Origin: a virus
Taxonomy: Duplodnaviria > Caudoviricetes
Virus record (IMG/VR): IMGVR_UViG_3300042554_001750
Strand: one strand, 5' to 3'
DNA: 64,000 nucleotides
Each line of letters starts with the position of its first letter. Position 1 is the stretch's first letter. Of this stretch, positions 1 through 21,454 are shown piece after piece. The notes under the pieces are model-generated. The model made no database searches. It worked only from the letters and a program-made list of their open reading frames with translations, and was not told the origin of the DNA. A program made the position numbers and the translations under genes.

Positions 1-582
1 GAAATTGATAATGAAGTCAAGAAAGGTGCCAAGAAAGGATACAAGGTAAGTATTCGTTGGCATGATGCTGGTGACTTCTTTAGTCCTGAGTATGTAGATA
101 TGGCATTTAATCTAGCAAAGAGTTTACCTAATGTAGACTTTTATGCTTACACAAAAGTTGCTGATGTTGCGTTAGGTGAGAAGCCCGACAACTTTATGAT
201 TAACTGGAGTGAAGGCGCAAGTGCTTCACAAGAGAAGAAGGTAAAGGGTAGTGATCCTAGTTTAGAAAAAACAAAGAACAGCAGAATTATTCCAAGCAAC
301 TTATTCTATGATTTATTAGTGAAGGACGAAAAGAAGAACTTGGTTAAGGGTCCTGAAGGCCAATGGCAAGTGATACCTGACAAGTTACCTGAACTAAAAC
401 AACGACTAGCAAAAGAATACGGACTAAGTCCAAATAGTATTCTTAGCTATAGTGAGTGGGAAAGTAAAGTCAAGGGTAAAGATAAATCACCATTGAAGTA
501 CAATGTGATTATTGCACCTGGCGAACCTGATTTAACTGCTAAGGATGCAGGAGTATTGAGTACATTGTTACTCAAGCATTAA
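1..582 (+). CDS. Gene product 88 (GP88)-like protein, 5'-truncated by window edge
   Basis: Frame 1 is open from base 1 (EIDNEVKKGAKKGYKVSIRWHDAGDFFSPEY...), upstream of the ORF-track Met at 100; the RWHDAGDF motif is typical of phage GP88-like proteins. Confidence 0.6.
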   Translation, partial: EIDNEVKKGAKKGYKVSIRWHDAGDFFSPEYVDMAFNLAKSLPNVDFYAYTKVADVALGEKPDNFMINWSEGASASQEKKVKGSDPSLEKTKNSRIIPSNLFYDLLVKDEKKNLVKGPEGQWQVIPDKLPELKQRLAKEYGLSPNSILSYSEWESKVKGKDKSPLKYNVIIAPGEPDLTAKDAGVLSTLLLKH

Positions 583-1402
583 TCTTAAGTAGTTCGTTGA
601 TAGTATACAAGTTACGCATATAGGGCGATACATCTTCTAATACACTTGAAGGTAAATCGCCCTTTCTTCTTGGGCCGTATTTTACTTCAAATTCATAGCC
701 ATTAATGTCTTGGAACATACAAGTCATTTCATAAACTGTTTTACCTACACCATGCCCTAATGATTCAACACTATTGCTAGGCTTATCAATTGCTGTTTTT
801 AATGCATCACAAATTTCCATGACATGGACATAATCACGCAGACATGTGCCATCTTTGGTATCATAATCATTGCCGAATATTGTGAACTCACCAGTCTTAA
901 CTGCTCTCATTAAATTGAGCATTAATCCGTCTGGATTTGTGGGAGGCACAACTGTGCTACCTATCACATTATAAAATCTAAAAATGCTATAATCTTTTTT
1001 GTTGTGTTGTGTGCAGTATTCACGGACTACATCTTCTGCGGCTCTTTTGCTAATACCATATGCACTAGCACAACCTTCGGCAGCGCCAGTACTGGCAAAA
1101 ATAAAATTCTTTGTTTTTATTTTATTCACAACATTCATTGTGCCGTTCAAATTAGTGATATAATATTGAATAGGCATCTTCTCACTTTCGCTTACATTAA
1201 CCTTTGCCGCTAAATGAATAACACAATCAAATTCTTCTTCTAAATTGAATTGACGGTTTATATCACAATGGTAAAAAGTATGCGGGTCAACTTGCGGATA
1301 GTTAATATCTAATCCATGAACCTCGTATTCATCTTTTAACAAATGTGTTAAATGTGATCCAATGTATCCTGAACTACCAGTGATTAAAACTTTCTTTACC
1401 AT
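572..1402 (-). CDS. galE: NAD-dependent epimerase/dehydratase (UDP-glucose 4-epimerase-like)
   Basis: TGSSGYIG Rossmann motif, HLAA, YxxSK (YGISK), FRFYNV, RDYVHV. Confidence 0.85.
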   Translation of the reverse strand: MVKKVLITGSSGYIGSHLTHLLKDEYEVHGLDINYPQVDPHTFYHCDINRQFNLEEEFDCVIHLAAKVNVSESEKMPIQYYITNLNGTMNVVNKIKTKNFIFASTGAAEGCASAYGISKRAAEDVVREYCTQHNKKDYSIFRFYNVIGSTVVPPTNPDGLMLNLMRAVKTGEFTIFGNDYDTKDGTCLRDYVHVMEICDALKTAIDKPSNSVESLGHGVGKTVYEMTCMFQDINGYEFEVKYGPRRKGDLPSSVLEDVSPYMRNLYTINELLKINA

Positions 1403-2724
1403 GCGAATAATTCCTCTTTATCTTCTGTGGGTATAAAATTAGGATCTTTTGTTAGATATGTATCTTCATCTGTATAGATTACACGAAACTTATGTTTATT
1501 CGTCAACACACTACGAATATCATCAATGCAAATTACTTTTCGTCCCAAACTTGCGATATAATCTTTTAGTTTTACAGTGGTCTCGTTGCAAATCTTTGCC
1601 GTATTATTATTAGATTGTTTTGTTTTAAAATCATTAAAACATTCATTCCATTTATGAAATACTGTATTTTCTATACTACCTGCATGACTCAAAACACCTT
1701 TATTATACCAATTTTCAGCAGTAGCAAACATATGATATGCATTTAATATATCTGTTGCCATATTCTTTTTATTTGTTTCAAAAAAGTAACGGCTGTCAAA
1801 GTTTTTTGTCCATCGTTGATCACTTAGGCAGAATGTGGGCAATTGTATGTGCTGTTCATAAAATGCCATACCATAGCTTTCAACTGTGCTAGGATTAAAT
1901 GCAACTCTTGCGCTTGTAATAAAATCTACTTTTTCTTTACCAACAATACTAGAATGAATGTCATACTTGACACCTAACTTAGATAAACGGTCCTCAAATT
2001 TTTTGACACCATTGGGGCTAGTCATTACTTTAGCAGGAAGTTTAGTCTGCTCAATCAAGTCAATAAACAATTCAGGATTTTTACCTTCTTCCCAGCGACC
2101 AACAAACAATACTCCCTCTCTAGGCGTGTGATGTTCTTCTAAAAGTCCACGCTCTGTGATAGGTATAGGAAGATGATATACTGTATCGCTGATGTTTAGT
2201 TGATTAAATTTGCTTTGTGTGCCAACATATATACCCGATGTTTCTAGCTGCTGTCGCATTAATTCATTTGTATTATGTAAAAATGGATTTTTAGTATCTT
2301 TGAAAATTTGACTTTCAAGATGTGTATAGGCAATAATCTGAATTACATCTTCAAGTCCCATTGTACTTGCAACCTGAACTGTCTCATATGTGTTACAAAT
2401 AAACGCATCATATAGATTATGCTCTAATGCTTCTATGATAGCATTTCTAAAGTTCGCCATTCTTTCATAGCAAAATGTATCACCATACATAAAGATATTG
2501 CTATGGTCTGTATAACGCAATGATTCTAGTGGTGCAATAACATTTGCTTTTAAAGATTTTACAAACTCGTTGTCTTGTGGCTCTTTGTCGGTGATAATAT
2601 CAACTTTGATATTACGACTATCCATTAACTCACAGAAGCTTTTAGCAAATTGTCCTATACCACCGTGAGGTATTAGTGTTTGATAACTAACTAAAAAACC
2701 AATTCTTTTATCGTATGTTCTCAT
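1396..2724 (-). CDS. GT-B glycosyltransferase (GT4-like)
   Basis: GGIG N-terminal motif, FVGRWEEGKNP, ESYGMAFYE (E-x7-E); start moved to 2724 because of the ATGA overlap with the upstream stop. Confidence 0.8.
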   Translation of the reverse strand: MRTYDKRIGFLVSYQTLIPHGGIGQFAKSFCELMDSRNIKVDIITDKEPQDNEFVKSLKANVIAPLESLRYTDHSNIFMYGDTFCYERMANFRNAIIEALEHNLYDAFICNTYETVQVASTMGLEDVIQIIAYTHLESQIFKDTKNPFLHNTNELMRQQLETSGIYVGTQSKFNQLNISDTVYHLPIPITERGLLEEHHTPREGVLFVGRWEEGKNPELFIDLIEQTKLPAKVMTSPNGVKKFEDRLSKLGVKYDIHSSIVGKEKVDFITSARVAFNPSTVESYGMAFYEQHIQLPTFCLSDQRWTKNFDSRYFFETNKKNMATDILNAYHMFATAENWYNKGVLSHAGSIENTVFHKWNECFNDFKTKQSNNNTAKICNETTVKLKDYIASLGRKVICIDDIRSVLTNKHKFRVIYTDEDTYLTKDPNFIPTEDKEELFAW

Positions 2725-2954
2725 TTCTTTAATTGCCAGATTAAAAATTCTTCTTTGCTGATCCAATATTTTTGTACGATCGGGTCACCGGGCCCGGTAA
2801 TCCAATTTTCGCCATAGTAGGCAATTTTACCCCAAAGTGGTTTTTCAGATAAAAAACATTTTTTTGGAATCCAACAGAGTTTTAATTTCCAACCTCTGGT
2901 TCTGTTTAATCCCCAATCTTCTGAAAGAGGCGCCTGCTGGGCATCTCCGTACAT
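2721..2954 (-). CDS. Hypothetical protein, 77 aa
   Basis: Fills the gap between queE and the GT gene, with an ATGA overlap. Confidence 0.65.
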   Translation of the reverse strand: MYGDAQQAPLSEDWGLNRTRGWKLKLCWIPKKCFLSEKPLWGKIAYYGENWITGPGDPIVQKYWISKEEFLIWQLKK

Positions 2955-2957
2955 TAA

Positions 2958-3809
2958 TCAGGTACCCCATTCATTCTTAAACAGTGGCACTTGAAGTCTA
3001 TCACTATAACGCCAACCGTTGTTCATAGCTTCAATAGCAACATTCTTAGCATTAAGAGTATACACTGGTTCTACCCCGCCACAAGGCATCAGGTAAACAG
3101 GACCTGTGAAGCCAGCTTTACGATATAAGTTTACTGCTTCTTTTGCTTCTTCTACATCTTCTTTAGTTGCTACCACAAACTTCAAATAAGTGAAACCATA
3201 TTCATCATATTGAGCAACAACATCAGGCTTTATAGCTTCATCCCATTTTTCACCTGAAATACTTAGTTTAGGACTAACACTAAATGTTACGCTAAAATAA
3301 CCTTTATCATGATGCCATTCACGATGCAACCATTGTCTAAATTCTTTAGTTAATTCTTGAGTGCCATTTGTCTCAAAGGTTAGTTCCTTCAATGGTCTCA
3401 TTTTTTCGTGCGAAAGTAATTCAGGATACGATCTTTGCCATCCAAGCAGAGGTTCACCCCCTGTGATAACCAAGTGCTCATCTTGCCAAGACCGTCCAGG
3501 AAGTAAATCAATAATACTACTAACAATAGTATCGGTATTGAGCACAGGACTAAGATGTTTGAAACGAGGGTCCCAAGATGCATAACTATCACATCCAGTG
3601 CTGACAAGCGGAAGGGATTTATAATCTGTATAAGTTTCTGCATTAATCGCAATTATATCTCTTTCTGTACTTAATTGACCTTTTGGCATGCCGAACCCGC
3701 CGCATGTAAAATTGCATCCAAAAGTTCTTAGGAAGACACTAGGTACACCCATGTATCTACCTTCTCCCTGTATTGAATAAAACAACTCTGATATTTTTAA
3801 ATGGCTCAT
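2958..3809 (-). CDS. queE: 7-carboxy-7-deazaguanine synthase (radical SAM)
   Basis: ELFYSIQGEG, FLRTFGCNFTC...CDS (extended radical SAM Cys motif), ITGGEP, FETNGT, VSPKL, RLQV; start 3809 overlaps the dadA stop (ATGA). Confidence 0.93.
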   Translation of the reverse strand: MSHLKISELFYSIQGEGRYMGVPSVFLRTFGCNFTCGGFGMPKGQLSTERDIIAINAETYTDYKSLPLVSTGCDSYASWDPRFKHLSPVLNTDTIVSSIIDLLPGRSWQDEHLVITGGEPLLGWQRSYPELLSHEKMRPLKELTFETNGTQELTKEFRQWLHREWHHDKGYFSVTFSVSPKLSISGEKWDEAIKPDVVAQYDEYGFTYLKFVVATKEDVEEAKEAVNLYRKAGFTGPVYLMPCGGVEPVYTLNAKNVAIEAMNNGWRYSDRLQVPLFKNEWGT

Positions 3810-4975
3810 ATTTGTTCCGAAATTAATTTTGCTGTGTATGGAGCTAATGTCCAACCTAGATGTCCGTGACCTGTATTATAAAATACATTTTTACATTTGT
3901 CACTTTTTTTGGTAATAGGCATCATATTCGGAGTCATTGGTCGCAAACATGCCCATTGTGTATAATCATGCGTGTTAATACGGGGAAAGTTTGTATGCAC
4001 CCATCGCAATAGTGGTTCAACTCTGTCCCTGCGAATATCATAGTTTTCACCTGTTAGTTCAGCAGTGCCAGCAACACGGAACCTATTACCTAAACTTGAA
4101 GTTACAATTTTGGCTTTATCATCAAGTAAACTAACTTTGGGCAATAAAGATGAATCTACATTATTGATAGTAATACTATAGCCCTTGACAGGATAGATCG
4201 GTAATTTATCACCCAAGCTTTCAGCTATGTCAACACTGCCTACTCCAGCACATATGACAACACAATCAGAATGATCCATTAGATACTCAATATCTGCTTC
4301 GTCGTTATAGTAAAACTTTACACGATATTTTTTCTCTAAGACTTTTGCTAACTGATAGCAAAATTTATGTATGTCACCTGTCCAATCGCTAGGAGTCCAA
4401 GCAGCACCAACCACACCTTTAATATCTTTTAAAGATGGATCTAGTGCTATTGTTTGTGCAGGTGTTAGTATATCCCACTCAACGTTGTTATTATTGTAAA
4501 GTTCTTTTGCAACTTTAGCAGAGTCAAAATACTTTTCATCTTTATAAAAGTGAAGTATGCCACAATCACTACGGTCAAACTCTAACTGTTCCTGGTTGCA
4601 AATTTCGTCATACAATTTTCTTGACTCTAAGCCCATGGCTATGGTTTTTTCAGTATTTGTTTTATACTGATTGGTCATAGTGTTGTAAAGAAATTTACTC
4701 ATCCAACTCCATTGCTTAAAGTCAAGCCGAGGACGAATAAGTAACGGGGCATCTTGGGTAAACATCCATTTAATGCCCTTCTTAACATTGCTCCATGTTG
4801 TCCATACTTCACTATTACTAACAGAGACTTGACCCCCATTAGCAAAACTAGTACGCATGGCAGGGTGAGGTTCCTGTTCAAATACAGAAACTTTATGTCC
4901 TGCTTTGGCTAAATAGTAAGCTGTCGTAATACCAGCGATACCTGCACCAATAACTGCTACATGTTTTTTATTCAT
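3806..4975 (-). CDS. dadA: D-amino acid dehydrogenase-like FAD oxidoreductase
   Basis: VIGAGIAG, TSFANGGQ, PVKGYSIT, WACLRPMTP, NTGHGHLGWT; start MNKKH at 4975. Confidence 0.88.
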   Translation of the reverse strand: MNKKHVAVIGAGIAGITTAYYLAKAGHKVSVFEQEPHPAMRTSFANGGQVSVSNSEVWTTWSNVKKGIKWMFTQDAPLLIRPRLDFKQWSWMSKFLYNTMTNQYKTNTEKTIAMGLESRKLYDEICNQEQLEFDRSDCGILHFYKDEKYFDSAKVAKELYNNNNVEWDILTPAQTIALDPSLKDIKGVVGAAWTPSDWTGDIHKFCYQLAKVLEKKYRVKFYYNDEADIEYLMDHSDCVVICAGVGSVDIAESLGDKLPIYPVKGYSITINNVDSSLLPKVSLLDDKAKIVTSSLGNRFRVAGTAELTGENYDIRRDRVEPLLRWVHTNFPRINTHDYTQWACLRPMTPNMMPITKKSDKCKNVFYNTGHGHLGWTLAPYTAKLISEQI

Positions 4976-5615
4976 GTTTATTCTCATAATTAAAAGAGTT
5001 ATTATCACCTAAAAACCATTTAGGATTGGTTTCAACAACATACTTTTTAGTACAAACCTTAAAATCAGGGAATAATAGTTCTTTAGGATTGCTAGCAGCA
5101 TCAAAAAATATACATCTATTATTTGGTTGTGCAGCGTACTGTCCATTATCTAGTTCAATAAAATTGAAACTTTTATGATCCTCAGGCCATTCAGCATAAC
5201 TAGTATCAATAATGTTCAAATCAGGAGCACTATGATCTACGGTAAAAAGATAATTGCCCTGATAGAAATTTTTATCTTTGGCATAAAATTTACAACTCAA
5301 ATTTCTTAGAAATGCCTTTTGCATGATTGTAAAATCATAACTAAAACAATCCCAAATTTGCAATGTATCAAGGCTTAAAAATTTGGCAGGATCTAAATCT
5401 TTATTTCTACTTACAAAAGCATGAAGTGGCAACTTATCGTATAGAGCACCATATCTTGGTAGATAAGCCTCTATACGAAAAGCCTGGCTGCGTAAACTTT
5501 TGATACTCACCCAAATACAAGGTTCATACTCATCATGACCTTTTGTAAAGTCATATAAGAATTCTCTGCGTACAAAACAATGTACTGGTGGTATGTTTGC
5601 GACTAAGTGTGCCAT
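4968..5615 (-). CDS. Hypothetical phage protein, 215 aa
   Basis: Long ORF abutting the queD stop and overlapping the dadA start. Confidence 0.8.
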   Translation of the reverse strand: MAHLVANIPPVHCFVRREFLYDFTKGHDEYEPCIWVSIKSLRSQAFRIEAYLPRYGALYDKLPLHAFVSRNKDLDPAKFLSLDTLQIWDCFSYDFTIMQKAFLRNLSCKFYAKDKNFYQGNYLFTVDHSAPDLNIIDTSYAEWPEDHKSFNFIELDNGQYAAQPNNRCIFFDAASNPKELLFPDFKVCTKKYVVETNPKWFLGDNNSFNYENKHE

Positions 5616-6116
5616 TTAATTGAATAAGTCCTCGTTCCATTCACGGTGACCTTCACGAAAGGCCATGTTTGCTTGTGTCTCTCTAACTTCTACACGGTAG
5701 CACCATAGGCGTTCGCTTTCTCCCGGTCCCCACATGTCAGGAATGTAGACACCATTAACATACTTGTAAAGCATGTCGGCTAGACCTTCACAGCCTAAGC
5801 GTGGAAGTATAGTTAGTTTAGCCATCTTTTTTTCTTGCAACATTTTAAATGTTTCAAGTTCTGGATCATCTTGCGCTACAAGCAATGTATGGTCAAACTG
5901 ATCTTCTAGAATTTTCTTAAGTTCTTTCAATCCACCGTAATCAGCAGCCCAATTGCGAACATCAAGATTATTAGTACCAAAATAAAATTTCATACTAAAA
6001 CTATATCCATGTATCATATTGCAATGACTGTCAGCACGCCATTGACGATACGCACAGGGAAATGCGTCATGGTATTCTTTAGTACTTGTATATTTGTATG
6101 TAATTGGATTATGCAT
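5616..6116 (-). CDS. queD: 6-carboxy-5,6,7,8-tetrahydropterin synthase
   Basis: CxxxHGYS motif (SHCNMIHGYSF), DYGGLK, FDHTLL, CEGLA, EVRET; SD AGGAG 5 nt upstream. Confidence 0.9.
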   Translation of the reverse strand: MHNPITYKYTSTKEYHDAFPCAYRQWRADSHCNMIHGYSFSMKFYFGTNNLDVRNWAADYGGLKELKKILEDQFDHTLLVAQDDPELETFKMLQEKKMAKLTILPRLGCEGLADMLYKYVNGVYIPDMWGPGESERLWCYRVEVRETQANMAFREGHREWNEDLFN

Positions 6117-6187
6117 ATTTTCTCCTATGTTAATTTTAGCATAGGCAGCGGAATTTTTAAAGCGGGACGATGCTGAGACCGCTATAC
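6117..6187 (-). promoter_or_regulatory. Candidate cis-regulatory RNA (pseudoknot versus anti-SD hairpin) in the queD leader
   Basis: AGCGG/CCGCU stem; loop AGCAU complementary to downstream AUGCU; competing CCUAUG/CAUAGG hairpin covering the SD. Confidence 0.5.
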
Positions 6188-6655
6188 TTATTTACCATTT
6201 TTATTTAGTTCTGTCTCAGCAACTCGTTTACGCAAACTACTTGAACTAAAACTATGATCACGACCGTTGAATACTAATTGTATTCCACGTTTCTCGCAAA
6301 TGGCACGACCAGTAAAATCTTTCTCCATGTACTCAACACCGAGTATACGCACATCAACGGGCAATGTCAAGAGGATATCTTCTAAGTCTTTTTCCGTATT
6401 GTAGACAACTATTTCATCTACAAAGCGGCAAGCACTTAATGTAATTTGGCGCTCTACAATACTTTGTATGGGAGCATTCTTTTCAGGACGATCCCAACTA
6501 GCATTGTTTTGTAATCCACAAATAAGATAGTCACAGTGATTTTTAGCCTCACTTAGCATTGCGACATGTCCGGCATGCAGTAAATCAAATTGGCTAAAAG
6601 TTATACCAATTCGTAAGCCTTGAGCTTTTAATTCTTTAATTCTGTTGAAGATCAT
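6188..6655 (-). CDS. Cytidylyltransferase (TagD/glycerol-3-phosphate cytidylyltransferase-like)
   Basis: FDLLHAGHV (HxGH), VDEI, RDHSFSSSSLR; start 6655 from ATGA overlap. Confidence 0.85.
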   Translation of the reverse strand: MIFNRIKELKAQGLRIGITFSQFDLLHAGHVAMLSEAKNHCDYLICGLQNNASWDRPEKNAPIQSIVERQITLSACRFVDEIVVYNTEKDLEDILLTLPVDVRILGVEYMEKDFTGRAICEKRGIQLVFNGRDHSFSSSSLRKRVAETELNKNGK

Positions 6656-6888
6656 TCTTGCAATCTTCTCCACATGATCTTTTGTTCATGTTCTTTTAAG
6701 AATTCATCCTCTCCTGCAAATTCGGGAGAATCTTTTAGTATTGAATCCACTAACCATTTAATTCTATAAAGGTCCTGTTTTAAGTAAAACGCAGTATAAC
6801 CATCGTTATATGAACTGTTAACTTCTACACCGGTCATATAGATTTGATGATGTACGCTAGTGTAGTCCATTGGTTTCTTAAAGCCCAT
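6652..6888 (-). CDS. Hypothetical protein, 78 aa
   Basis: Overlapping start/stop with both neighbours. Confidence 0.7.
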   Translation of the reverse strand: MGFKKPMDYTSVHHQIYMTGVEVNSSYNDGYTAFYLKQDLYRIKWLVDSILKDSPEFAGEDEFLKEHEQKIMWRRLQE

Positions 6889-7148
6889 TATACTAACTCC
6901 TCTAAGATTCCCAATAACTCAGCACCGATCAAAAAGAATCCTGCTACAAAAAATACACCACCTCCTTGAAGTAGTGCAACACCGGCGACAATTCTAAGAG
7001 CACTCTTTACAAGGCTAACATAAAAATGTCCTTTGCTGGGATCCTTGGGTTGTATATTAATCATAGGTGGATGATGAGGACAGCGTCCTTGTTGAAAATC
7101 ACAATCAGGGCTATAATCTTTTTTACAGATATCGCACTTCATCTGCAA
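6888..7148 (-). CDS. Small membrane protein with N-terminal CxxC/Cys cluster
   Basis: CDICKKDYSPDC...C followed by a hydrophobic C-terminal hairpin. Confidence 0.65.
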   Translation of the reverse strand: MQMKCDICKKDYSPDCDFQQGRCPHHPPMINIQPKDPSKGHFYVSLVKSALRIVAGVALLQGGGVFFVAGFFLIGAELLGILEELV

Positions 7149-7819
7149 CCCTTAGTTGCAATGTTTAAAAACTCTTGTCTAGCAGCAGGATCATTTTTGA
7201 AACCTCCACCGAGACGGCTAGTGACAGTTGAACTACCTGTATCCTCAACACCGCGACTCTTAACACAATAATGCTGTGCGTCAATCATAACCGCAACATC
7301 TTCTGTATCTAAGATAAACTGTAGTGTGTGGAAAATCTGTTCAGTTAACCGTTCTTGAATCTGCGGACGCTTGCTGAAATATTCTACAATCCGATTAATT
7401 TTAGATAGTCCAAGCACTTTATCCTTAGGCACATATGCAACAGTAGCGGTGCCATCAATGATAACAAAATGGTGCTCACAATTGCTTTGTACATTGACGT
7501 TCCTTTCAACGACCATTTCGTTGTACTTCATCTTGTTATCAACTGTAGTACACTTGGGGAATGCTTCATAATCAAGCCCCCAAAAGATTTCGTTTACATA
7601 CATCCGGGCAACACGTTTGGGTGTTTCTGCTAGACTGTCATCAGACAAATCTAATCCAAGCAATTCCATTATTTGCTTGAAATTAGTTTCAATGATTGAA
7701 ATCTTGGCTTTGCGATCAAGATCAACTTCCTTCATAGGAGTTTCAACACCCATTTTAACTAGATGTTCGTGAACTTTTAAACCAAGCTCAGGGTCTGTTT
7801 TTGTTTTATTGTAACTCAT
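7139..7819 (-). CDS. folE: GTP cyclohydrolase I
   Basis: TPKRVA, SNCEHH, GLSKINR, RPQIQERLT, HYCVKSRG. Confidence 0.95.
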   Translation of the reverse strand: MSYNKTKTDPELGLKVHEHLVKMGVETPMKEVDLDRKAKISIIETNFKQIMELLGLDLSDDSLAETPKRVARMYVNEIFWGLDYEAFPKCTTVDNKMKYNEMVVERNVNVQSNCEHHFVIIDGTATVAYVPKDKVLGLSKINRIVEYFSKRPQIQERLTEQIFHTLQFILDTEDVAVMIDAQHYCVKSRGVEDTGSSTVTSRLGGGFKNDPAARQEFLNIATKGCR

Positions 7820-7851
7820 AGAATCCTTCCTTACGCGGATATGAAATTGGA

Positions 7852-7879
7852 AAATGTGCTACCGTTGTGTAGCACATTT
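7852..7879 (-). terminator. 11-bp hairpin downstream of the Hc1-like gene
   Basis: AAATGTGCTAC-N6-GTAGCACATTT directly after the stop codon; U-tract weak. Confidence 0.55.
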
Positions 7880-7881
7880 AT

Positions 7882-8070
7882 TTATGCCTTAGCTTCTTTG
7901 CGGGCGTTTTTTGTTTCGGTAATTTCATTACGGCGAGCCTTGACAGCCTTCGCTAGTTCTGCCAATGCTTTACGGGCACGGGTGCCTGCAGCATTATTAC
8001 CTTTTTCAAACTTTTCATGTTCGGCTAAGTATGCTTCTAAGTGTGTATTAATATCATTGTGTGCGTTCAT
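7882..8070 (-). CDS. Histone H1-like (Hc1-type) small basic DNA-binding protein
   Basis: GNNAAGTRARKAL motif, basic C-terminus. Confidence 0.7.
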   Translation of the reverse strand: MNAHNDINTHLEAYLAEHEKFEKGNNAAGTRARKALAELAKAVKARRNEITETKNARKEAKA

Positions 8071-8333
8071 TTTGTTTCCTTTACTGTTTTCTTTTTTGTC
8101 TTTTTTACTGCTGTGACAGGAATAGTTGACTCATGTTTTAGTATAGCATTTCTAACTTCACTAAGCAATGCTTCATCATCCCATTCTAATTTAGTAGTAC
8201 CATCTTCGTATGTAGTTACTGTAAGATGTGTGCCCTTAACTACTTTGGGCCATGCTTCGCTATTTTTTGTTTTCTTTTCCTTTATAACACTGGCTGGTGT
8301 TGAATCAGCAGTGGTTTTCTTTTTTGTTGCCAT
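8067..8333 (-). CDS. Hypothetical Lys-rich protein
   Basis: SD present; overlaps the downstream start. Confidence 0.7.
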   Translation of the reverse strand: MATKKKTTADSTPASVIKEKKTKNSEAWPKVVKGTHLTVTTYEDGTTKLEWDDEALLSEVRNAILKHESTIPVTAVKKTKKKTVKETK

Positions 8334-8340
8334 TATCTCC

Positions 8341-9375
8341 TCACTTTAAAAATACATCATTAATCTGACGGTTAACACGGATGAATGTGGTGCACTTACT
8401 AAGTTGTTTAAGAGTTGGTGCTCCAACATATGTGCAAGTGCTACGCAAACCTCCGAGTAAATCTAGTACAGTATTTTTTACTGCACCGCGATATTTAACT
8501 TCAACTGTGCGACCCTCACTACTGCGATAATTAGCGACACCTCCGTGATGCTTGTCCATAGCAGTATCACTACTCATGCCATAAAACACTACACGAGGAT
8601 TCTTACCATCTTCACTAATTACTTCGCCTTCGCCTTCATCATGTCCAGATAACATGCCACCCAGCATTACAAAATCAGCGCCAGCTCCGAAGGCTTTAGC
8701 GACATCCCCAGGACAAGTACAACCGCCGTCAGCAATAATGTGTCCACCAAGACCATGAGCAGCGTCCGCGCATTCAATGATTGCTGAAAGTTGTGGATAG
8801 CCAACGCCAGTTTGAATACGAGTAGTACAAACACTCCCAGGGCCAATGCCCACTTTAACAATATCGGCTCCACGTAGAATTAACTCCTGTGTCATGTCAG
8901 CCGTTACTACATTGCCTGCTATGATAGTATGCTTGGGATACAATCTACGAACATCAGCTACAAAATCACCAAAATGTTCGCTATACCCATTTGCAATATC
9001 AATACAAATAAAATGTATTGCAGGATTATCTTCTAGTATGGCTACTAATCTATTTAAGTCTTTTTCGCTAGTTCCAGTGCTTACGGCAAAATAATTGCCA
9101 CCGATATTATCAGTTAATTTAGGAAATTCATCACGACCTAGTGACTTTACTAGACAAGTAAACATCCTATGTTCGTAAAGTGCTACAGCCATAGAAGGAG
9201 TTCCTACACCATCCATGTTAGCTGCCATGACAGGGACTCCAGTCCATTCCCACCCACTATGCTTAAACTGGTATGTGCGAGTTAAATCAACTTCTTTACG
9301 GCTTGCTAGAGTACTACGCTTAGGACGAATCAATACATCCTTGAAATCTAGCTTAATATCATCTTCAATACGCAT
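8341..9375 (-). CDS. guaC: GMP reductase
   Basis: [50 protein letters not shown]. Confidence 0.95.
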
Positions 9376-9430
9376 TAACAATTGCCTCTAATAAAAACTA
9401 ACTATACAACAAAACAACTATAAAACAAAA

Positions 9431-9455
9431 GAAAACGGGAATAAATCCCGTTTTC
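9431..9455 (-). terminator. Rho-independent terminator after dnaK
   Basis: GAAAACGGGA-N5-TCCCGTTTTC followed by a T-run on the minus strand. Confidence 0.75.
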
Positions 9456-9458
9456 CTT

Positions 9459-11336
9459 TTACTTGACTTCTGTAGTTTCTGCGTCTACTACATTTGGTTC
9501 CGTTTTTTGTTTAGCTTGTTCTGCTTCATACTTTTTACTAGTAATGGGACCAATTGCTTGATACAGTTCGGTAACCTTTTTATTGATTTCCTCAGCATCT
9601 TCACCCTTAAGTGCTTGCTCTAAATTGTCAAGTGCTTCCTTTGCTTTATTACTTTCTTCCTCTGTTACCTGATCTTTAAATTCATTGTAATCACTACGGA
9701 AGTTATTTAAAGCACCTTCACCACTGTTCTTTGCTTGAATCAGTTCAAGTTTCTTCTTATCAGCTTCTGCATTTTCTTCAGCTTCACGAACCATCTTATC
9801 AATTTCAGCTTCAGTTAATCCAGAATTAGACTTGATTGTAATCTTGTTTTCTTTACCTGTGCCTTGATCTTTTGCACTAACATGCATGATACCGTTAGCA
9901 TCAATATCAAGTGTTACTTCAATTTGAGGTACTCCACGCTTGGCTGGGGGAATTCCTTCAAGATTAAATTCACCTAACAATTTATTGTGTTGTACAAATT
10001 CTCTTTCACCTTGATAGACTTTGACAGTAACAGCAGGTTGATTATCATCCGCAGTACTAAACACTTGACTATGCTTGGTAGGAATAGTAGTGTTCTTTTT
10101 GATAAGCTTAGTCATGACACCACCCATAGTTTCAATACCGAGACTTAGAGGTGTAACATCAAGCAATAGAACATCCTTACGGTCACCTGCTAAAACACTA
10201 CCTTGAATAGCTGCACCAGCGGCAACTGCTTCATCAGGATTAACATCCTTGCGAGGTGCCTTAGCAAACAATTTTTCAACTTCTTCTTGAACCTTAGGCA
10301 TGCGAGTCATACCGCCAACAAGAATGACTTCATCAATGTCACTTGCTGTTACATTTGCATCCTTCATCGCAATCTTGCATGGTTCAATAGAACGCTTGAT
10401 TAATTCTTCAACCAAACTTTCTAACTTAGCACGGGTGAGCTTGATGTTCATGTGCTTGGGACCACTTGCATCAGCAGTAATGTATGGAAGATTAACATCA
10501 GTTTGGCTACTGCTGGACAATTCAATCTTGGCCTTTTCAGCAGCTTCTTTCAAACGCTGTAGTGCTAATACATCCTTAGTTAGATCAACACCTTGTTCCT
10601 TTTTAAATTCAGAAACAAGATAGTCCATGATGCGTTGGTCAAAGTCTTCACCACCTAAAAATGTATCACCGTTAGTGGACAGAACTTCAATCTGTTTCTC
10701 ACCATCAATGTTTGCAATCTCAATAATAGAAACGTCAAAGGTACCACCGCCCAAGTCATAGACAGCAACCTTACGGTCTTTCTTATCAGCTTTATCTACA
10801 CCATATGCCAGTGCAGCCGCTGTTGGTTCATTGATGATACGCAATACTTCTAGACCAGCAATGCGTCCGGCATCCTTAGTTGCTTGACGCTGGCTGTCGT
10901 TGAAATATGCAGGGACAGTAATAACTGCTTGAGTGACTTCGTGACCGAGATAATCTTCTGCGGTCTTTTTCATCTTGCGCAAAACTTCGGCTGAAATTTG
11001 CGGAGGTGCAATTTCTTTACCTGAAACACGGACCCATGCGTCACCATTAGTTGCCTCATAGATTTCATATGGCATGAGGTCAATATCTTTTTGAACTGCG
11101 TTTTCTTTAAACTTACGACCAATCAAACGCTTGGCTGCATAGATAGTATTTTTGGGATTTGTTACTGCTTGTCGTTTTGCACTTGCACCAACTAAGATTT
11201 CATCGTTAGTGTATGCAATGATTGATGGGGTTGTACGTGCGCCTTCACTGTTTTCAATAACTTTTGTAGAACCGTTTTCTACAACTGCAACGCACGAATT
11301 GGTTGTACCGAGGTCAATACCTATTACTTTGCTCAT
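9459..11336 (-). CDS. dnaK: Hsp70 chaperone DnaK
   Basis: [36 protein letters not shown]; full length. Confidence 0.98.
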
Positions 11337-11361
11337 ATTTTATCTCCTTTAAAAAAGCAAG

Positions 11362-11403
11362 AATATCGTAGGACCTGTAAGGCATCCTACGATATTATTT
11401 ATA
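11362..11403 (-). promoter_or_regulatory. Late promoter TATAAATA (11396-11403) abutting a 12-bp inverted repeat upstream of dnaK
   Basis: Exact T4 late box; AATATCGTAGGA-N11-TCCTACGATATT. Confidence 0.6.
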
Positions 11404-11414
11404 CCTAAAAATTA

Positions 11415-12590
11415 TTAGAACTTAGATTCTCTAGTGTGTTTACGATAATCCGTAGACATGCGCAAATATTTCTCACCCTTACCCTGAAGGACATCACAAA
11501 TTCTATCAATAGTACCGTCATTATAGTTACTAATTTTACCCATATTGACATGTGGTTTCTTTAGTAGAATTTCTAACTTGTTTATAGCATCTTCTATTGA
11601 CCATGGAACATAGAGGCGTTCATGATCATTAGCAAAAGTTTCTGGGAAACTGCGATAAGCAGGATACAATACATTACAACCAAGAGTATCGGCCTCAGAT
11701 ACTGTGTTTGATACCCAATCTTGTAAAGCACAATTAAACAAAACCCTACTATCATTAAGAATATTATAGTAAGTATTCTTATCTAGATCCTCATAAATTG
11801 ACAGTTTGTTTTCTTCTTCTAATTTACGGGTGCGTTTCATATAACTATCATTATTGCTACGCAACTTGCCGCCGCTACACAAAACAAATTCAACTTCGTT
11901 AGGATGCCTACGATTATATTCTTCAATTAGATCCATAAAGAAATCGGGCTGCTTTTCCTGATCCCAACGCGCGGCAAATACAACACGCATTCTGCGCTTG
12001 TTGAATGGTTTAATTTTACCTTCAACACGTTCTTCAACTTCTTCTTTACCGAATGCTAGCCCTGAAATATTGTATATAGGACTAGTCCATCCAGCAATAC
12101 GCATATGAGCAACCATTTCTTCGTTTGTTGCGAGGACTCCGTCCACAAACTCATTAACCATTTGTTCGTAGAGGCCCATCCATTTCGCCATACCCCATAC
12201 ATGTACGAAATCGTCAGGATCAATGGACTGAGCAAGACACCTAACATAAATGCGGGGACGTAGATTACTAGGGACTTGATCCAGTATGTAAGGTAAACTT
12301 TCCATACCGGGCTGGAACATGTCTTCAAAGTAGATAACATCTTCATTTGTTACTTTTCCCTCTTTCATCAATTTGACAAGGTTCATCATTTGACTCATGG
12401 AGTAGTAGCTACGACCATGAGCATCCAATACCTGACCAGTAACGATTGCCTGATCACTGGTTAGTGTTTCGCCGGATACAATTTCGTATTTGATTTTTCT
12501 TCGTTTGAAAACACGTTCATTCCAATCAGTTAACTGAAGGGTATAACGCGCTTTATAGGGCTCTAGCCCCATGTAAAATAGTTTTCTCAT
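11415..12590 (-). CDS. GT-B glycosyltransferase (putative DNA-modifying)
   Basis: FAARWDQEKQP, LQDWVSNTVSEA, YPAYRSFPE; lies next to the DpdL-like and DpdA-like genes. Confidence 0.7.
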   Translation of the reverse strand: MRKLFYMGLEPYKARYTLQLTDWNERVFKRRKIKYEIVSGETLTSDQAIVTGQVLDAHGRSYYSMSQMMNLVKLMKEGKVTNEDVIYFEDMFQPGMESLPYILDQVPSNLRPRIYVRCLAQSIDPDDFVHVWGMAKWMGLYEQMVNEFVDGVLATNEEMVAHMRIAGWTSPIYNISGLAFGKEEVEERVEGKIKPFNKRRMRVVFAARWDQEKQPDFFMDLIEEYNRRHPNEVEFVLCSGGKLRSNNDSYMKRTRKLEEENKLSIYEDLDKNTYYNILNDSRVLFNCALQDWVSNTVSEADTLGCNVLYPAYRSFPETFANDHERLYVPWSIEDAINKLEILLKKPHVNMGKISNYNDGTIDRICDVLQGKGEKYLRMSTDYRKHTRESKF

Positions 12591-12595
12591 ATTGA

Positions 12596-12841
12596 TTAGA
12601 AAAAGTTAATTTTTAACAATTTGCATACTGCATCATATGGATTTGATATCTCAACCCAAACATTAGATTTAATATCATATGTTTTGAATGCATCTACAGT
12701 AACATTCATTTTATCATTATTATATACTGTAGTCATATTGCATTTTCCCTCTAATACAAAATAATGTATATTAGAATCAGTAATGCTTCCTGTTATTGTT
12801 TCATTCTTATCTAGCTCAATTTGATTTATATTGTATGGCAT
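12596..12841 (-). CDS. Hypothetical protein, possibly cupin-like
   Basis: YFVLEG motif; preceded by TATAAATA (12878-12885) and a GCAA-tetraloop hairpin. Confidence 0.55.
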   Translation of the reverse strand: MPYNINQIELDKNETITGSITDSNIHYFVLEGKCNMTTVYNNDKMNVTVDAFKTYDIKSNVWVEISNPYDAVCKLLKINFF

Positions 12842-12854
12842 ATATTTTATGTAA

Positions 12855-12885
12855 AGAATGGCAGTTGCCTGCCATTCTATTTATA
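12855..12885 (-). promoter_or_regulatory. Late promoter TATAAATA overlapping a 10-bp GNRA hairpin
   Basis: AGAATGGCAG-GCAA-CTGCCATTCT; may also terminate the upstream gene. Confidence 0.55.
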
Positions 12886-12890
12886 TGCTT

Positions 12891-13106
12891 TTAAACCAAT
12901 TCAGCTTTTCCATCTATTTCCCAGTTGTCCTTGACAGGCTTTCCAGTAATAAATTTTGTATACTGACGGAATACATAACTCTTGTTACTGTATAGGTCAG
13001 ATTCGTCATATTTGTACCCAAACTGAACACAGAAATTAAGATACTTTTCTAGGTCCTCAAAAATCTGATTGACACGAGGATTGGGTTGAATAACGATTTT
13101 TGCCAT
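12891..13106 (-). CDS. Hypothetical protein, 71 aa
   Basis: SD AAGGAG upstream. Confidence 0.75.
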   Translation of the reverse strand: MAKIVIQPNPRVNQIFEDLEKYLNFCVQFGYKYDESDLYSNKSYVFRQYTKFITGKPVKDNWEIDGKAELV

Positions 13107-13117
13107 TTATATCTCCT

Positions 13118-13567
13118 TTAGATGGCTAGTTGTTGATAAGGTTGATGTGTTTTATAAGAAATTGTGGCACCGTTCTCACCGTCTTCGGATACGGTAATCT
13201 CAATGTCACGCCCGGGATAACGAGTAGCAATAACTTCATAAAGGTCATCGCTAATCATTTCACAACTCTTGAAATTCAATTCCAATGTGCCTTGGTAGAG
13301 CTTTTCTAGCCAACGCTTGAATTGGATAAACTCAATATCCCTATCGTTGTGAAATACTTGAATGCCTACGTTGAAATGAAAAATATGACGATGGGGAGTT
13401 CCCAAGAAACTTACATCATATTCATCACCAGTGGCAAGATTTGAGTCGGTTGCAGCAGCCGGGTACTTATGAATACCTTCTTTACGAAAGGTCACCCAGA
13501 TCATTCGGCGTGCTCGGTCGCGAATTCTTTCACGCTTTTCAGCCAATGCTTGTTCGTGTTGATTCAT
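13118..13567 (-). CDS. T-fold QueD paralogue (DpdL-like, predicted CDG decarboxylase)
   Basis: LGTPHRHIFHF metal-binding motif, DRDIEF, SCEM, VSEDGENGA; DpdL assignment is from recalled motif and needs an HMM check. Confidence 0.6.
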   Translation of the reverse strand: MNQHEQALAEKRERIRDRARRMIWVTFRKEGIHKYPAAATDSNLATGDEYDVSFLGTPHRHIFHFNVGIQVFHNDRDIEFIQFKRWLEKLYQGTLELNFKSCEMISDDLYEVIATRYPGRDIEITVSEDGENGATISYKTHQPYQQLAI

Positions 13568-13776
13568 TCATAACTCCGATTAAGTGTTGCCCACATCAAC
13601 CATTGATGGAAGGCGTTGTAAACTTTTTCTGCTTCTGTTGCATCTTGTTCAATTTTAATTCCGCGCACATAAAAGCCATCTTTTGCTACACGCAACATTT
13701 CAGACTCATTAGAGTGAAACAAGATTGTTGCAGGCTGAATGTCATGATCCAGATTAAAACTTGTAGTGTCGTCCAT
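13564..13776 (-). CDS. Hypothetical protein, 70 aa
   Basis: Coupled to neighbours. Confidence 0.65.
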   Translation of the reverse strand: MDDTTSFNLDHDIQPATILFHSNESEMLRVAKDGFYVRGIKIEQDATEAEKVYNAFHQWLMWATLNRSYE

Positions 13777-13940
13777 TATTCGTCACCGTAGCCTATACGC
13801 TGATTTTCTTCGTATTGGGCTTTGCGCAAAAGCCGTAATTCGTTTAAAACTTTATCAATTTTTTCTTTGTCTTTATTTTCGGCACTTTCCAAGTGCTTTA
13901 ATTGATTTTCTAAAATTCTAATTTGATTACTATAGTCCAT
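13776..13940 (-). CDS. Hypothetical protein, 54 aa (not in ORF track)
   Basis: MDYSNQIRILENQLKHLE...GYGDE; GGAG upstream; TAATG overlap with the next gene. Confidence 0.65.
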   Translation of the reverse strand: MDYSNQIRILENQLKHLESAENKDKEKIDKVLNELRLLRKAQYEENQRIGYGDE

Positions 13941-13941
13941 A

Positions 13942-15501
13942 CTATTCTCCTAACGCCTCTGTCATTGCATCATCACTATCAATGATTTCTTCATCAATTT
14001 CGGGTTCTGAATTTTCAAAACTAAACAGTTGATCAAACATAGTCATAGCGTTAACAGTCTTTTTACCACTAATACCCTGACTACCACTTTGCATTTGCGT
14101 CCATAGTTTGCTATGTCGCTCAATAACTTCTAAACTTTCAGCCTTTGTTTTCTTACTAAAGATTTCTTCAATCACATCTTTGTACAGTATACGATCAAAT
14201 GTTTCATTCATCAACATTTTTGGTATAACTCCCTGTTCATATCTACGGTTAGCTTCTTGAACACCATTGATATGCATCCAAACATTGTGACTTTGAACCA
14301 ATGTATAACTTAATGTATCCCAACTAGTTTTAGTTTCTTTACCGTGTTGACCCAAAAAGCCAACACCACGATAGCATAAATCTTTAAGTAAGAGTTTATC
14401 AGTTACTGGACTATCTGTAAATGTATCATGGATACCTTCAGCCAAAACAGCAGTGCTAAATTTGCGAGTATCATTAGCAAAGTTTTTATTTTCTGCGGTT
14501 TTTTCCATACTGTATGACCATTTTTTACCATGCTCAAAACTATTATTGAAATAAGCAAGGCCCTTAGCTGCACCATAAAATGGGCTAGCGCAGTCAAAAG
14601 TAATTTCCAAATTAGGATTGTGATATTTGCGTATTGCCTTTTTAATATCACTAAACAATACCGCATATTCCATGATACTAACACCTAGGCAATGAATTAA
14701 ATCATGTTTGCCCGGAATCAATAATCCATCATAGATAATATCAACTAATCTACGCAACATTAAATGTACATCAATTTTATTCTGACCACCGAATGCCCAA
14801 CCATTAAAATGATTGTCTGGATAGATATTTGGGTCACAATATTTTTTCATTTCAAGATACCAATCATCACTTTGAGTATGATTGCGACCTTGCAATACAT
14901 TTAAGAACTTACATTTGCCCGAACGGTTTTGAATAAAATATTCGTTGTTGATATGTGTAGCAGCAATCGCTTCTTCAATTGTGCTGATACCATGTGCTGA
15001 TTTACCAGTTTTGGGATCTTTGATATGAAAAGTAGTTAGTGACTGTGAAGGAATATCAAGACACATACCATAATCCATGTATGTATCCATCCATGTCAAA
15101 ACTTCCTTGCGCTTTTTCATGGCACGAGGACAGTTAGGATCCTTCCAATCAGCAGGCCACTGGCATTTTAGAATCTGAAATCCACCTGAGTCACCGAGCA
15201 TGAATGTGCCCGGTTCACGCTCACGGATAATGCTTTCATTTGGGTCATCTTTAGTGATATCTAAGTTAGCATGACCAGCACTGTACAATCCCCACTTATA
15301 ATAGTAAAGACCTTGTTGACTGTTTAAGAAATTCAAACATTCAACATCATTATTAAAACCAGCAGGAATCCTTGACTTCTCAAAATATTCCTCACCTTTG
15401 CGTTGCTTACCTAATCCACTGATGTAAAAACTACTAACAGCGGGCAAGAATAATGCCCACTCTGGATTGTGTTTACTAGAAAGATTATCTTGTTCCATCA
15501 T
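13942..15501 (-). CDS. dpdA: TGT-family guanine transglycosylase (DpdA-like, probably DpdA3-type)
   Basis: DSGGFQ, LDIP, VLQG, WAFGG, HCLG, FDCASP motifs; lacks the Zn-binding CxC motif of tRNA TGTs; in a folE/queD/queE context. Confidence 0.75.
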   Translation of the reverse strand: MMEQDNLSSKHNPEWALFLPAVSSFYISGLGKQRKGEEYFEKSRIPAGFNNDVECLNFLNSQQGLYYYKWGLYSAGHANLDITKDDPNESIIREREPGTFMLGDSGGFQILKCQWPADWKDPNCPRAMKKRKEVLTWMDTYMDYGMCLDIPSQSLTTFHIKDPKTGKSAHGISTIEEAIAATHINNEYFIQNRSGKCKFLNVLQGRNHTQSDDWYLEMKKYCDPNIYPDNHFNGWAFGGQNKIDVHLMLRRLVDIIYDGLLIPGKHDLIHCLGVSIMEYAVLFSDIKKAIRKYHNPNLEITFDCASPFYGAAKGLAYFNNSFEHGKKWSYSMEKTAENKNFANDTRKFSTAVLAEGIHDTFTDSPVTDKLLLKDLCYRGVGFLGQHGKETKTSWDTLSYTLVQSHNVWMHINGVQEANRRYEQGVIPKMLMNETFDRILYKDVIEEIFSKKTKAESLEVIERHSKLWTQMQSGSQGISGKKTVNAMTMFDQLFSFENSEPEIDEEIIDSDDAMTEALGE

Positions 15502-15869
15502 CCGATTTTAATTTCCATTGATGTAAGTTTCCTTACAATATCAATTTGTTCTTTTTTTTCTTTAATTTGTTTTTGAAGATCAGCAATGGTTGGGTTAGTT
15601 TTTGCTAACTCATTTAGTTCCATTTCTTCTTGGCGTTTTTGCCTTGCCCAATCAAGTAACGATTCAGCTTCGGGCGTCATTGAAACAGTAGAATATCCAG
15701 AAGCCATTTGAATCCAATTAGCTCCATCGTATATTTCAATATTTTGTGTTGAAGTATTAAACCGCATGTTACCAACACCTTGAGATCCACTGTAGTTATT
15801 CACATAAGTAGAGCCCGAGCCGCCGGTAACAGTCAGATATTTTCCACCGCCTGTAATGTTCTTAATCAT
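15498..15869 (-). CDS. Hypothetical protein, 123 aa
   Basis: Gly-rich N-terminus, coiled-coil C-terminus; overlaps both neighbours. Confidence 0.75.
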   Translation of the reverse strand: MIKNITGGGKYLTVTGGSGSTYVNNYSGSQGVGNMRFNTSTQNIEIYDGANWIQMASGYSTVSMTPEAESLLDWARQKRQEEMELNELAKTNPTIADLQKQIKEKKEQIDIVRKLTSMEIKIG

Positions 15870-20270: not shown

Positions 20271-20296
20271 TGTGCTAGTATAGCACAACTTAGAAT

Positions 20297-21450: not shown

Positions 21451-21454
21451 TCTT

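Follow-up and report, generated by a model that had tools for sequence, protein, structure and literature searches.

The DNA studied here was a 64,000-nucleotide stretch (the window) of the IMG/VR record IMGVR_UViG_3300042554_001750, which came from an uncultured jumbo phage (Caudoviricetes) of about 340 kb. The system in question was a group of minus-strand genes between 572 and 16597 in which enzymes of 7-deazaguanine synthesis were combined with a putative DNA transglycosylase, two glycosyltransferases (GTs) and sugar-nucleotide enzymes. The family scans covered the open reading frames (ORFs) between 1 and 23111, i.e., the first 23.1 kb of the window. An earlier note on this DNA had described one co-oriented run from folE to galE at 572-7819 and proposed that it produced a sugar-bearing deazaguanine. 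The gene order that it gave was right, as all eleven ORFs of the run were on the minus strand at the places described. The genes that carried our argument were the following.

16671-19385, minus strand: family-B DNA polymerase, PolB (PF00136 2.7e-41; phrog_262 8.7e-198)
13942-15501, minus strand: win519, predicted DpdA-like transglycosylase with the fold of tRNA-guanine transglycosylase (TGT), 519 aa (motifs and AlphaFold2 (AF2) fold)
13118-13567, minus strand: DpdL homolog, a QueD paralog (phrog_17812 2.3e-34)
11415-12590, minus strand: GT391, predicted GT-B glycosyltransferase (PF00534 3.6e-5, below cut-off; AF2 fold)
7139-7819, minus strand: FolE, GTP cyclohydrolase I (NCBIfam NF006824, Pfam PF01227)
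6188-6655, minus strand: NTase, a nucleotidyltransferase of the cytidylyltransferase fold (TagD / ECT / RfaE-II-like), 155 aa (PF01467 1.7e-10)
5616-6116, minus strand: QueD-like 6-carboxytetrahydropterin synthase (PF01242 1.1e-15; phrog_2389 6.5e-37)
2958-3809, minus strand: QueE-like radical-SAM 7-carboxy-7-deazaguanine (CDG) synthase (phrog_2076 1.4e-53)
2721-2954, minus strand: h77, small basic protein with an isoelectric point (pI) of 9.2 (ATGA overlap onto GT456)
1396-2724, minus strand: GT456, GT4-type GT-B glycosyltransferase (PF00534 3.8e-4, below cut-off)
572-1402, minus strand: short GalE-like epimerase/dehydratase of the short-chain dehydrogenase/reductase (SDR) type, 276 aa (PF01370 5.3e-34)

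The set of enzymes required for CDG synthesis (FolE, QueD and QueE) was complete. FolE reached 333.8 bits with the equivalog model NF006824 (cut-off 202) and 1.3e-62 with PF01227. The QueD-like and QueE-like proteins scored below the bacterial NCBIfam cut-offs (for the latter, TIGR03365 gave 2.1e-14). In phmmer comparisons, the QueD-like protein matched QueD of phage phiST with 2.3e-22 and QueD of phage ACP17 with 3.6e-56, and it carried the CxxxHGY motif, as did phiST QueD. The QueE-like protein had 48% identity to QueE of the distant cyanophage BUCT-ZZ01 and also matched proteins of phiST and ACP17.

Comparison with phiST, ACP17 and BUCT-ZZ01 joined the upstream genes at 11.4-15.5 kb to this set. 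The DpdL homolog belonged to the same PHROG as CGPG_00067 of phiST and matched it with 8.4e-14 (phmmer); its LGTPHRHIF fitted the published LxxxHRHxF motif that replaces CxxxHGH. In phiST, CGPG_00067 has been named DpdL and proposed to be a CDG decarboxylase, and 100% of G in the phiST DNA is replaced by plain 7-deazaguanine, in its DNA form dDG (PMC10516641). QueC was not present among the scanned window proteins (1-23111), where the only PP-loop protein was of the PF01171 TilS type, and the QueC model PF06508 remained below cut-off in four complete relatives of the source phage and had no match in BUCT-ZZ01. General family scans of the window proteins gave no QueF or ArcS either, neither of which was searched for separately. 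Since DpdL was present and QueC absent, the predicted base was 7-deazaguanine rather than CDG.

The same note had assumed that the que genes served DNA modification, and this agreed well with the DpdA-like TGT-fold enzyme and DpdL located 6-8 kb upstream of them, near PolB. Its span was right for the que genes but included only half of the system, as there was no DpdA within 572-7819. We consider it very probable that the core of the locus is a deazaguanine DNA-modification system. Its type is QueC-less, DpdL-type 7-deazaguanine DNA modification, the kind that gives dDG in phiST DNA. For the larger statement that 572-16597 makes up one replication-linked DNA-modification system of the jumbo phage, in which the two GTs decorate the deazaguanine, our judgement is evenly balanced. 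The likeness to phiST extended to homologous FolE, QueD and QueE, to a DpdL of the same PHROG with LxxxHRHxF, to the lack of QueC, to the position of the cluster next to a DNA polymerase and to the presence of a TGT-superfamily transglycosylase. In contrast to phiST, the transglycosylase of the window had 519 aa with a clear DSGGFQ and was not a clear DpdA3 (259 aa). Moreover, the phiST cluster, which yields plain dDG DNA, had no glycosyltransferase, NTase or SDR.

The DpdA-like protein win519

The AF2 model of win519 (pLDDT 88, pTM 0.86) was compared with the PDB using Foldseek, and the 50 best matches were all tRNA-guanine transglycosylases (probability 1.00, E about 1e-6, target TM about 0.5). 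DSGGFQ started at residue 104 and FDCASP at residue 302, and we take the catalytic aspartates of win519 to be equivalent to Asp102 and Asp280 of TGT. With HMMER, 812 relatives were recovered from 1.84 billion cluster representatives. In an alignment of 54 sequences, D104, S105 and G107 of GDSGGFQ were invariant, and G106 and Q109 nearly so; H270 and G273 of the HxLG motif and D303 of FDC were likewise invariant. The family included PA5oct gp168 and was related to ACP17_403 (hhalign, 96%) and X1_307. The latter two are homologous, and X1_307 was annotated by its depositors as a queuine tRNA-ribosyltransferase. Based on the model and these motifs, win519 is DpdA-like; on present evidence it is not DpdA3.

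Standard profiles performed poorly on this family. Namely, PF01702, PF23859 and PF20314 (HMMER) matched none of the 54 family members, and the Pfam TGT, DUF6610 and DpdA models had no match in the four complete relatives or in BUCT-ZZ01. The known DpdA3 of phiST fails PF01702 too, so the Pfam TGT/DpdA test was insensitive and its outcome was not a true absence. Searches with phmmer and jackhmmer starting from phiST DpdA3 recovered no window protein, and the win519-family profile produced only a chance match among PDB sequences. The zinc site of tRNA-TGT (CxCxxC...H) was not apparent, as the win519 sequence had neither CxCxxC nor CxxC; this would fit an enzyme with a substrate other than tRNA, without being diagnostic.

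Glycosyltransferases inside and outside the source phage family

GT391 was encoded outside the span of the earlier note. Its AF2 model had pLDDT 82, and the top Foldseek matches were MshA, BshA, glycogen synthase, OtsA and PimA. Judging from the model, GT391 folds as a retaining-type GT-B enzyme and so is a glycosyltransferase, while the fold leaves the acceptor unnamed. Its motif was a D-x7-E variant and not EX7E. The protein had 65% identity to a BUCT-ZZ01 gene product, and its homologs were ACP17_404, PA5oct gp167, X1_306, BCSR5_063 and BUCT_032. For the two GTs of the window, PF00534 gave 20.5 and 23.8 bits, under the cut-off of 26.4. In six further groups of cultured phages, a GT391-type GT was located beside, or at most 3 kb from, DpdL and a DpdA-like gene of the DSGGxQ type.

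PA5oct group: gp168 (DpdA-like), gp167 (GT), gp166 (DpdL)
ACP17: 403, 404 and 405, with the GT between the dpdA and dpdL genes
X1 / BUDD: 306, 307 and 308
BCSR5: 062 and 063, with DpdL as 068
Phosso: DpdL and GT adjacent
BUCT-ZZ01: GT391-type near DpdL, and also a GT456-like gene between FolE and the DpdA-like gene

Among 50,697 GenBank phage records, the DpdL type was found in 23, the GT391 type in 23 and both in 18; these records were not independent of each other, eleven of them being PA5oct-like. Judging by these genomes, the GT391-type GT goes together with the pairing of a long DpdA-like enzyme and DpdL. The phages phiST and Vibrio phage D479 had DpdL together with a short DpdA3 and lacked a GT. 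L085, a contig with a distant member of the win519 family, had QueC and FolE and neither DpdL nor a GT. It was the one informative contig with such a distant member, two others being too short. At L085:8452-9585, the win519-family gene was followed by genes for a myo-inositol-1-phosphate synthase, QueC and FolE. A possible exception to the pattern was Rhizobium phage RHph_I1_18. The cluster abutted PolB in the source phage family, PA5oct, ACP17, X1 and L085.

A close parallel was gp162-gp170 of PA5oct, where the genes had a matching order: PolB, a w243-like gene (see below), gp168 (DpdA-like, 2e-66), gp167 (GT), gp166 (DpdL, 5e-42) and then QueE. PA5oct differed in having one GT instead of two and no GT456, h77 or NTase module. 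It also had a phosphoribosyltransferase (PRTase, gp163), and its FolE and QueD were encoded elsewhere in the genome.

The second glycosyltransferase, GT456, was the one to which the earlier note had assigned the sugar transfer. The strongest cross-lineage link to the pathway was instead that of GT391 (11415-12590). The ESM Atlas neighbours of GT456 were GT4 clusters (0.97-0.98), and its EX7E motif was ESYGMAFYE at residue 282. It had 38% identity to the product of the BUCT-ZZ01 gene between FolE and the DpdA-like gene, and thus a GT456 homolog lay within the cluster of this distant cyanophage in a different gene order. Its neighbour h77 had no family match in the library scans. The NTase possessed the HAGH motif; the nearest NCBIfam model, TIGR02199 (RfaE domain II), gave 9.8e-21, far below cut-off, and the NCBIfam scores were 74 against a cut-off of 181.5 and 48.5 against 165.4. 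Its PDB matches were ethanolamine-phosphate (1e-12) and glycerol-3-phosphate (2e-10) cytidylyltransferases. The SDR matched UDP-glucose 4-epimerases best (PDB, 5e-33) and had both GxxGxxG and YxxxK, and it was about 60 residues shorter than GalE (276 vs about 338 aa).

IMG/VR contained 202 contigs related to the window. We examined 80 of these loci, and the conservation counts refer to the 44 loci with the full 10 kb of upstream flank. Four of the relatives were complete genomes of 349-525 kb (rated complete by CheckV). GT391, FolE, QueD, QueE and GT456 kept their order in all 44 relatives, the SDR was conserved in 43 and the NTase in 41, and h77 was directly upstream of GT456 in 40. The first half of the conserved order was PolB, w243, w123, w519 (the win519 family), DpdL, o71, GT391, a variable slot and FolE; from FolE it continued with h78, NTase, QueD, a second variable slot, QueE, h77, GT456 and SDR. 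Tight co-oriented packing is ordinary in phages, and it is this conservation that exceeds chance. Gene-neighbourhood conservation had been suggested in the earlier note as a check on its proposal, and GT456 (44/44), the SDR (43/44) and the NTase (41/44) did stay linked to the que genes in the relatives. The companion idea that GalE and the cytidylyltransferase supply the sugar held as far as linkage within the source phage family was concerned, and did not extend to other lineages. Because the NTase and SDR were linked to the pathway only within this family, their linkage points only faintly to a role as sugar suppliers.

Proposed pathway and alternative explanations

These gene sets suggest the following route. 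FolE, QueD and QueE would turn GTP into CDG, and DpdL would strip the carboxyl group from CDG to leave 7-deazaguanine, an activity that is itself proposed. After replication, win519 would exchange guanine for 7-deazaguanine in the phage DNA, giving dDG. GT391 would probably attach the first sugar to the deazaguanine, whether already in DNA or prior to its insertion; we place it first because the GT391 type follows DpdL and the DpdA-like protein across lineages. GT456 with its coupled partner h77 would probably add or extend a second group, the donor for which could be made by the NTase and the GalE-like SDR. G modified in this way would be bulky and would block restriction enzymes. As for the attachment atom, it may be speculated that N2 or the nucleophilic C7 is chemically conceivable. 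The PRTase and GuaC found in relatives could recycle the guanine freed by the base exchange.

That a sugar is added on the deazaguanine falls, in our judgement, just short of an even call, with the action of the GTs on this base inferred. More specifically, and more tentatively, we predict that the virion DNA of the source family and of PA5oct, ACP17, X1, BCSR5, Phosso and BUCT-ZZ01 carries glycosylated 7-deazaguanine, in which GT391 would add the first sugar, and GT456 with h77 a second sugar or polyol-phosphate activated by the NTase/SDR. The core belongs to a known type of system; the glycosylation module interleaved with it is not described in the literature that we searched.

The known DNA glycosylation, to our knowledge, is on hydroxymethyl-pyrimidines. 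Similar to the alpha- and beta-GTs of T-even phages, which act on 5-hydroxymethylcytosine, the proposed system would have phage-encoded GT-B enzymes that place a sugar on an already modified base against restriction, and again there are two GTs that possibly act in combination. The differences from the T-even case were that the acceptor here would be a purine without a hydroxymethyl handle, that no hydroxymethylase pathway was evident, and that the T-even enzymes had no sequence similarity to the window GTs and did not occur among the 50 best structural matches. With regard to a hydroxymethyl-pyrimidine route, ThyA was limited in the complete relatives to a single canonical-looking protein (357 bits) encoded far from the cluster, and it was missing from BUCT-ZZ01; no such route, and no competing acceptor, was visible. 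Another parallel is provided by QTMAN and QTGAL, which act on vertebrate tRNA and add a hexose to queuosine, a 7-deazaguanine derivative that is already in the nucleic acid. The sugar of queuosine, however, sits on the cyclopentenediol side chain, which 7-deazaguanine lacks, and the substrate is tRNA and not DNA.

Published experiments bear on several parts of this route. The 7-deazaguanine DNA bases named by Cui et al. 2023 are all sugar-free, and a glycosyltransferase is never mentioned there (PMC10516641). No description of a glycosylated deazaguanine in DNA emerged from our literature searches. PA5oct DNA resists cutting at G-containing restriction sites, and END nucleases, whose targets are hypermodified DNA, restrict this phage; the base behind its modified G was not identified (PMC12191111).

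A number of observations weigh against the proposed glycosylation of a deazaguanine in DNA. Unusual chemistry would be needed for the attachment, since 7-deazaguanine lacks a hydroxyl group. Both GTs were acidic (pI about 6) and gave no hint of DNA binding. The nearest structures to GT391 were small-molecule and polysaccharide GT-B enzymes (MshA, BshA, OtsA), and there was no DNA glucosyltransferase among its 50 best fold matches. In the other lineages, the deazaguanine clusters had neither the NTase nor the SDR. Furthermore, the stretch was an accessory-gene hotspot (Hsp70, GuaC, DAO, PurM-like, aldolase, PsiE), so that part of the linkage of the NTase, SDR and GT456 may be passive. With respect to the steps before the sugar, win519 had no Pfam or PHROG match, was below the threshold of every Pfam TGT/DpdA model, and had a weak link to phiST DpdA3 (259 aa; hhalign, 49%). 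The decarboxylase activity of DpdL is proposed, and reconstitution of dDG in E. coli failed: dpdL and dpdA of phiST or ACP17 gave no dDG there, and other enzymes are perhaps required (PMC10516641).

Thus, several other explanations had to be weighed. The DNA may contain plain dDG as in phiST, with the GTs, NTase and SDR being passenger accessory genes that glycosylate envelope polymers, virion proteins or a metabolite. The early/replication region does collect many unrelated accessory genes, the NTase resembles the glycerol-3-phosphate and ethanolamine-phosphate cytidylyltransferases of envelope pathways, the structural neighbours of GT391 work on small molecules or glycans, and the clusters of the other lineages lack the NTase and SDR. 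However, passengers would hardly be expected to show what was seen for GT391: in seven lineages with otherwise rearranged clusters, this type adjoined DpdL or the DpdA-like gene, and it was nearly confined to DpdL-bearing phages (18 of 23 records). GT456 also recurred within the BUCT-ZZ01 cluster, in another order. The passenger explanation fits the NTase, SDR and GT456 better than GT391, and as an account of the whole module we consider it unlikely. Another way to retain dDG as the final base would be a GT391-type protein that decorates nothing and helps the long DpdA-like enzyme or DpdL, through nucleotide binding or a transient sugar-linked intermediate. The failure of the ACP17 and phiST genes in E. 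coli, with the suggestion of further enzymes (PMC10516641), speaks for it, together with the position of the ACP17 GT between the dpdL and dpdA genes, the association of the GT with long DSGGxQ-type DpdA-like proteins and not with the short DpdA3 of phiST and D479, and the D-x7-E motif of GT391 in place of EX7E. Nevertheless, phiST achieves full dDG replacement without such a GT, and a second, canonical EX7E GT and sugar-nucleotide enzymes accompany the pathway, so that we regard a helper role as improbable.

The pathway might also modify tRNA via the TGT-fold enzyme, or yield a soluble deazapurine or glycoside (huimycin- or toyocamycin-like) through the PRTase of relatives, both of which we view as very improbable. 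TGT-fold enzymes act classically on tRNA, glycosylated preQ0 natural products exist, and a PRTase was encoded beside QueE in BUCT-ZZ01 and PA5oct (gp163) and occurred in 8 related loci. On the other hand, there was no PRTase in the window, and where it occurs it is equally well explained as salvage of the guanine that would be released by base exchange. The lack of the tRNA-TGT zinc motif in win519 and the abutment of PolB on the cluster in the source family, PA5oct, ACP17, X1 and L085 also point away from RNA and soluble products. It is the DNA itself that contains modified G in PA5oct (PMC12191111), and in phiST, which shares the FolE/QueD/QueE/DpdL set, dDG has replaced 100% of the G in DNA.

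Three related biosynthetic routes were considered and rejected. A huimycin/dapiramicin-type preQ0-glycoside cluster did not fit the lack of QueC (among the window proteins scanned and in the complete relatives), the place beside PolB in a lytic-type jumbo phage and the DpdA-like enzyme. A tetrahydrobiopterin-glycoside pathway (FolE, PTPS, SDR and GT) was ruled out by QueE, DpdL and the TGT-fold enzyme. A toyocamycin/tubercidin-like nucleotide route via the GuaC-like reductase was set aside since GuaC and the PRTase were variable and the window had no PRTase.

If glycosylated 7-deazaguanine is indeed formed, it would be the first purine with a sugar to be described from any DNA, and a glycosylated deazapurine would be a new class of DNA chemistry. 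There would be consequences for restriction evasion and for defence systems that sense hypermodified DNA, and also for work on phage DNA with nanopores or enzymes and for the development of tools to place bulky groups on G. The hypothesis is testable now, as several cultured phages share the trio of DpdA-like protein, GT and DpdL. The source phage family is very common in metagenomes, where word-indexed searches recovered over 6,700 transglycosylase homologs and, for GT391, at least 8,000, and the modification may be widespread. The analysis also defined a long DSGGxQ-type DpdA-like family that is missed by current Pfam models.

Layout, variable inserts and neighbouring genes

The remaining features of the locus were as follows.

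15866-16597, minus strand: w243 (phrog_12062), between PolB and the DpdA-like gene (PA5oct gp170 homolog, 1e-37)
9459-11336, minus strand: full-length Hsp70/DnaK, between GT391 and GuaC (PF00012 2.9e-261)
8341-9381, minus strand: variable insert of the GuaC/IMPDH family, located between GT391 and FolE (PF00478 1.8e-71)
6888-7142, minus strand: h86, small protein rich in Cys and with a hydrophobic tail, seldom conserved (1-2 related loci)
6652-6888, minus strand: h78, small conserved protein between FolE and NTase (31/44 relatives)
6117-6187, minus strand: intergenic spacer of 71 nt with an imperfect hairpin and a promoter-like site
4968-5615, minus strand: p215, cyanophage 'PurM'/'ferredoxin' protein (phrog_3704 8.6e-85)
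3806-4987, minus strand: DAO-family FAD oxidoreductase, D-amino-acid-dehydrogenase-like (PF01266 4.5e-62)

Of the ATGA start/stop overlaps, the three claimed for the run (2721-2724, 3806-3809 and 6652-6655) were confirmed, and 7139-7142 held a fourth. The 71-nt spacer was, as had been said, the sole real gap, the remaining junctions being overlaps or gaps of 0-3 nt. The overlaps indicated that the true starts were likely ATG 2724 for GT456, ATG 3809 for QueE and ATG 6655 for the NTase; the ESM Atlas entry for GT456 starts at ATG 2724 as well. Public contigs with identical sequence had independent gene calls that matched the ORFs. Promoter-like and terminator-like sites were not more numerous than in shuffled controls. 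Neither h86 nor h78 had a family match in the library scans.

The label 'dadA' given to the gene at 3806-4987 was correct as a name, since its product was a DAO-family D-amino-acid-dehydrogenase-like protein (NF009074, 452 bits, just under the bacterial equivalog cut-off of 494), and for the same reason it was ruled out as DpdA. The neighbouring p215, which had 52% identity to a protein of cyanophage S-TIM5, was a variable insert and was ruled out as a pathway member. Both were accessory metabolic genes inserted between QueD and QueE. In the 80 related loci, DAO was found 8 times, p215 12 times and GuaC 14 times. Hsp70 was found in none of them and therefore looks like a recent insertion in the source lineage; after its gene came a strong hairpin with a run of T. 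The variable slots of the relatives also contained PsiE, a Bax-inhibitor homolog and homing endonucleases.

Other genes occurred in the clusters of relatives. A P-loop kinase (APS-kinase/KTI12-like) was located between NTase and QueD in 22 related loci, and the PRTase, besides its place next to QueE in BUCT-ZZ01 and PA5oct, was located between QueD and QueE in the 8 loci mentioned above. A class II aldolase was found in 9 related loci and a radical-SAM/SPASM enzyme in 4. Examples of such extra cluster genes can be seen at L077:3240-4103, L051:6866-7483, L040:8179-8829 and L066:7228-8322. They may represent further tailoring steps or guanine salvage.

On the upstream side, w243 had the same position in the relatives and in L085. 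Its homolog PA5oct gp170 (cf. L084:7912-8658) was annotated as structural and was detected by electrospray ionization tandem mass spectrometry (ESI-MS/MS), which is odd for a gene inside a replication/modification module. A TilS-like PP-loop ATPase (PF01171 5.8e-34) was encoded at 19680-20288, just upstream of PolB. In Xanthomonas phage X1, a gene of the PAPS-reductase family (PP-loop) came directly after FolE in the deazaguanine cluster. Upstream of the PP-loop gene of the window, 21016-23111 encoded a staphylococcal-nuclease-like protein, a Zeta-toxin/AAA P-loop kinase with a DUF6934 tail (368 aa) and a ferritin-like protein. Finally, IMGVR_UViG_3300027749_002876 (524,565 bp) possessed two diverged full copies of the cluster (L024 and L064) about 460 kb apart; this record may have been assembled from two related phages, as a chimera or by concatenation.

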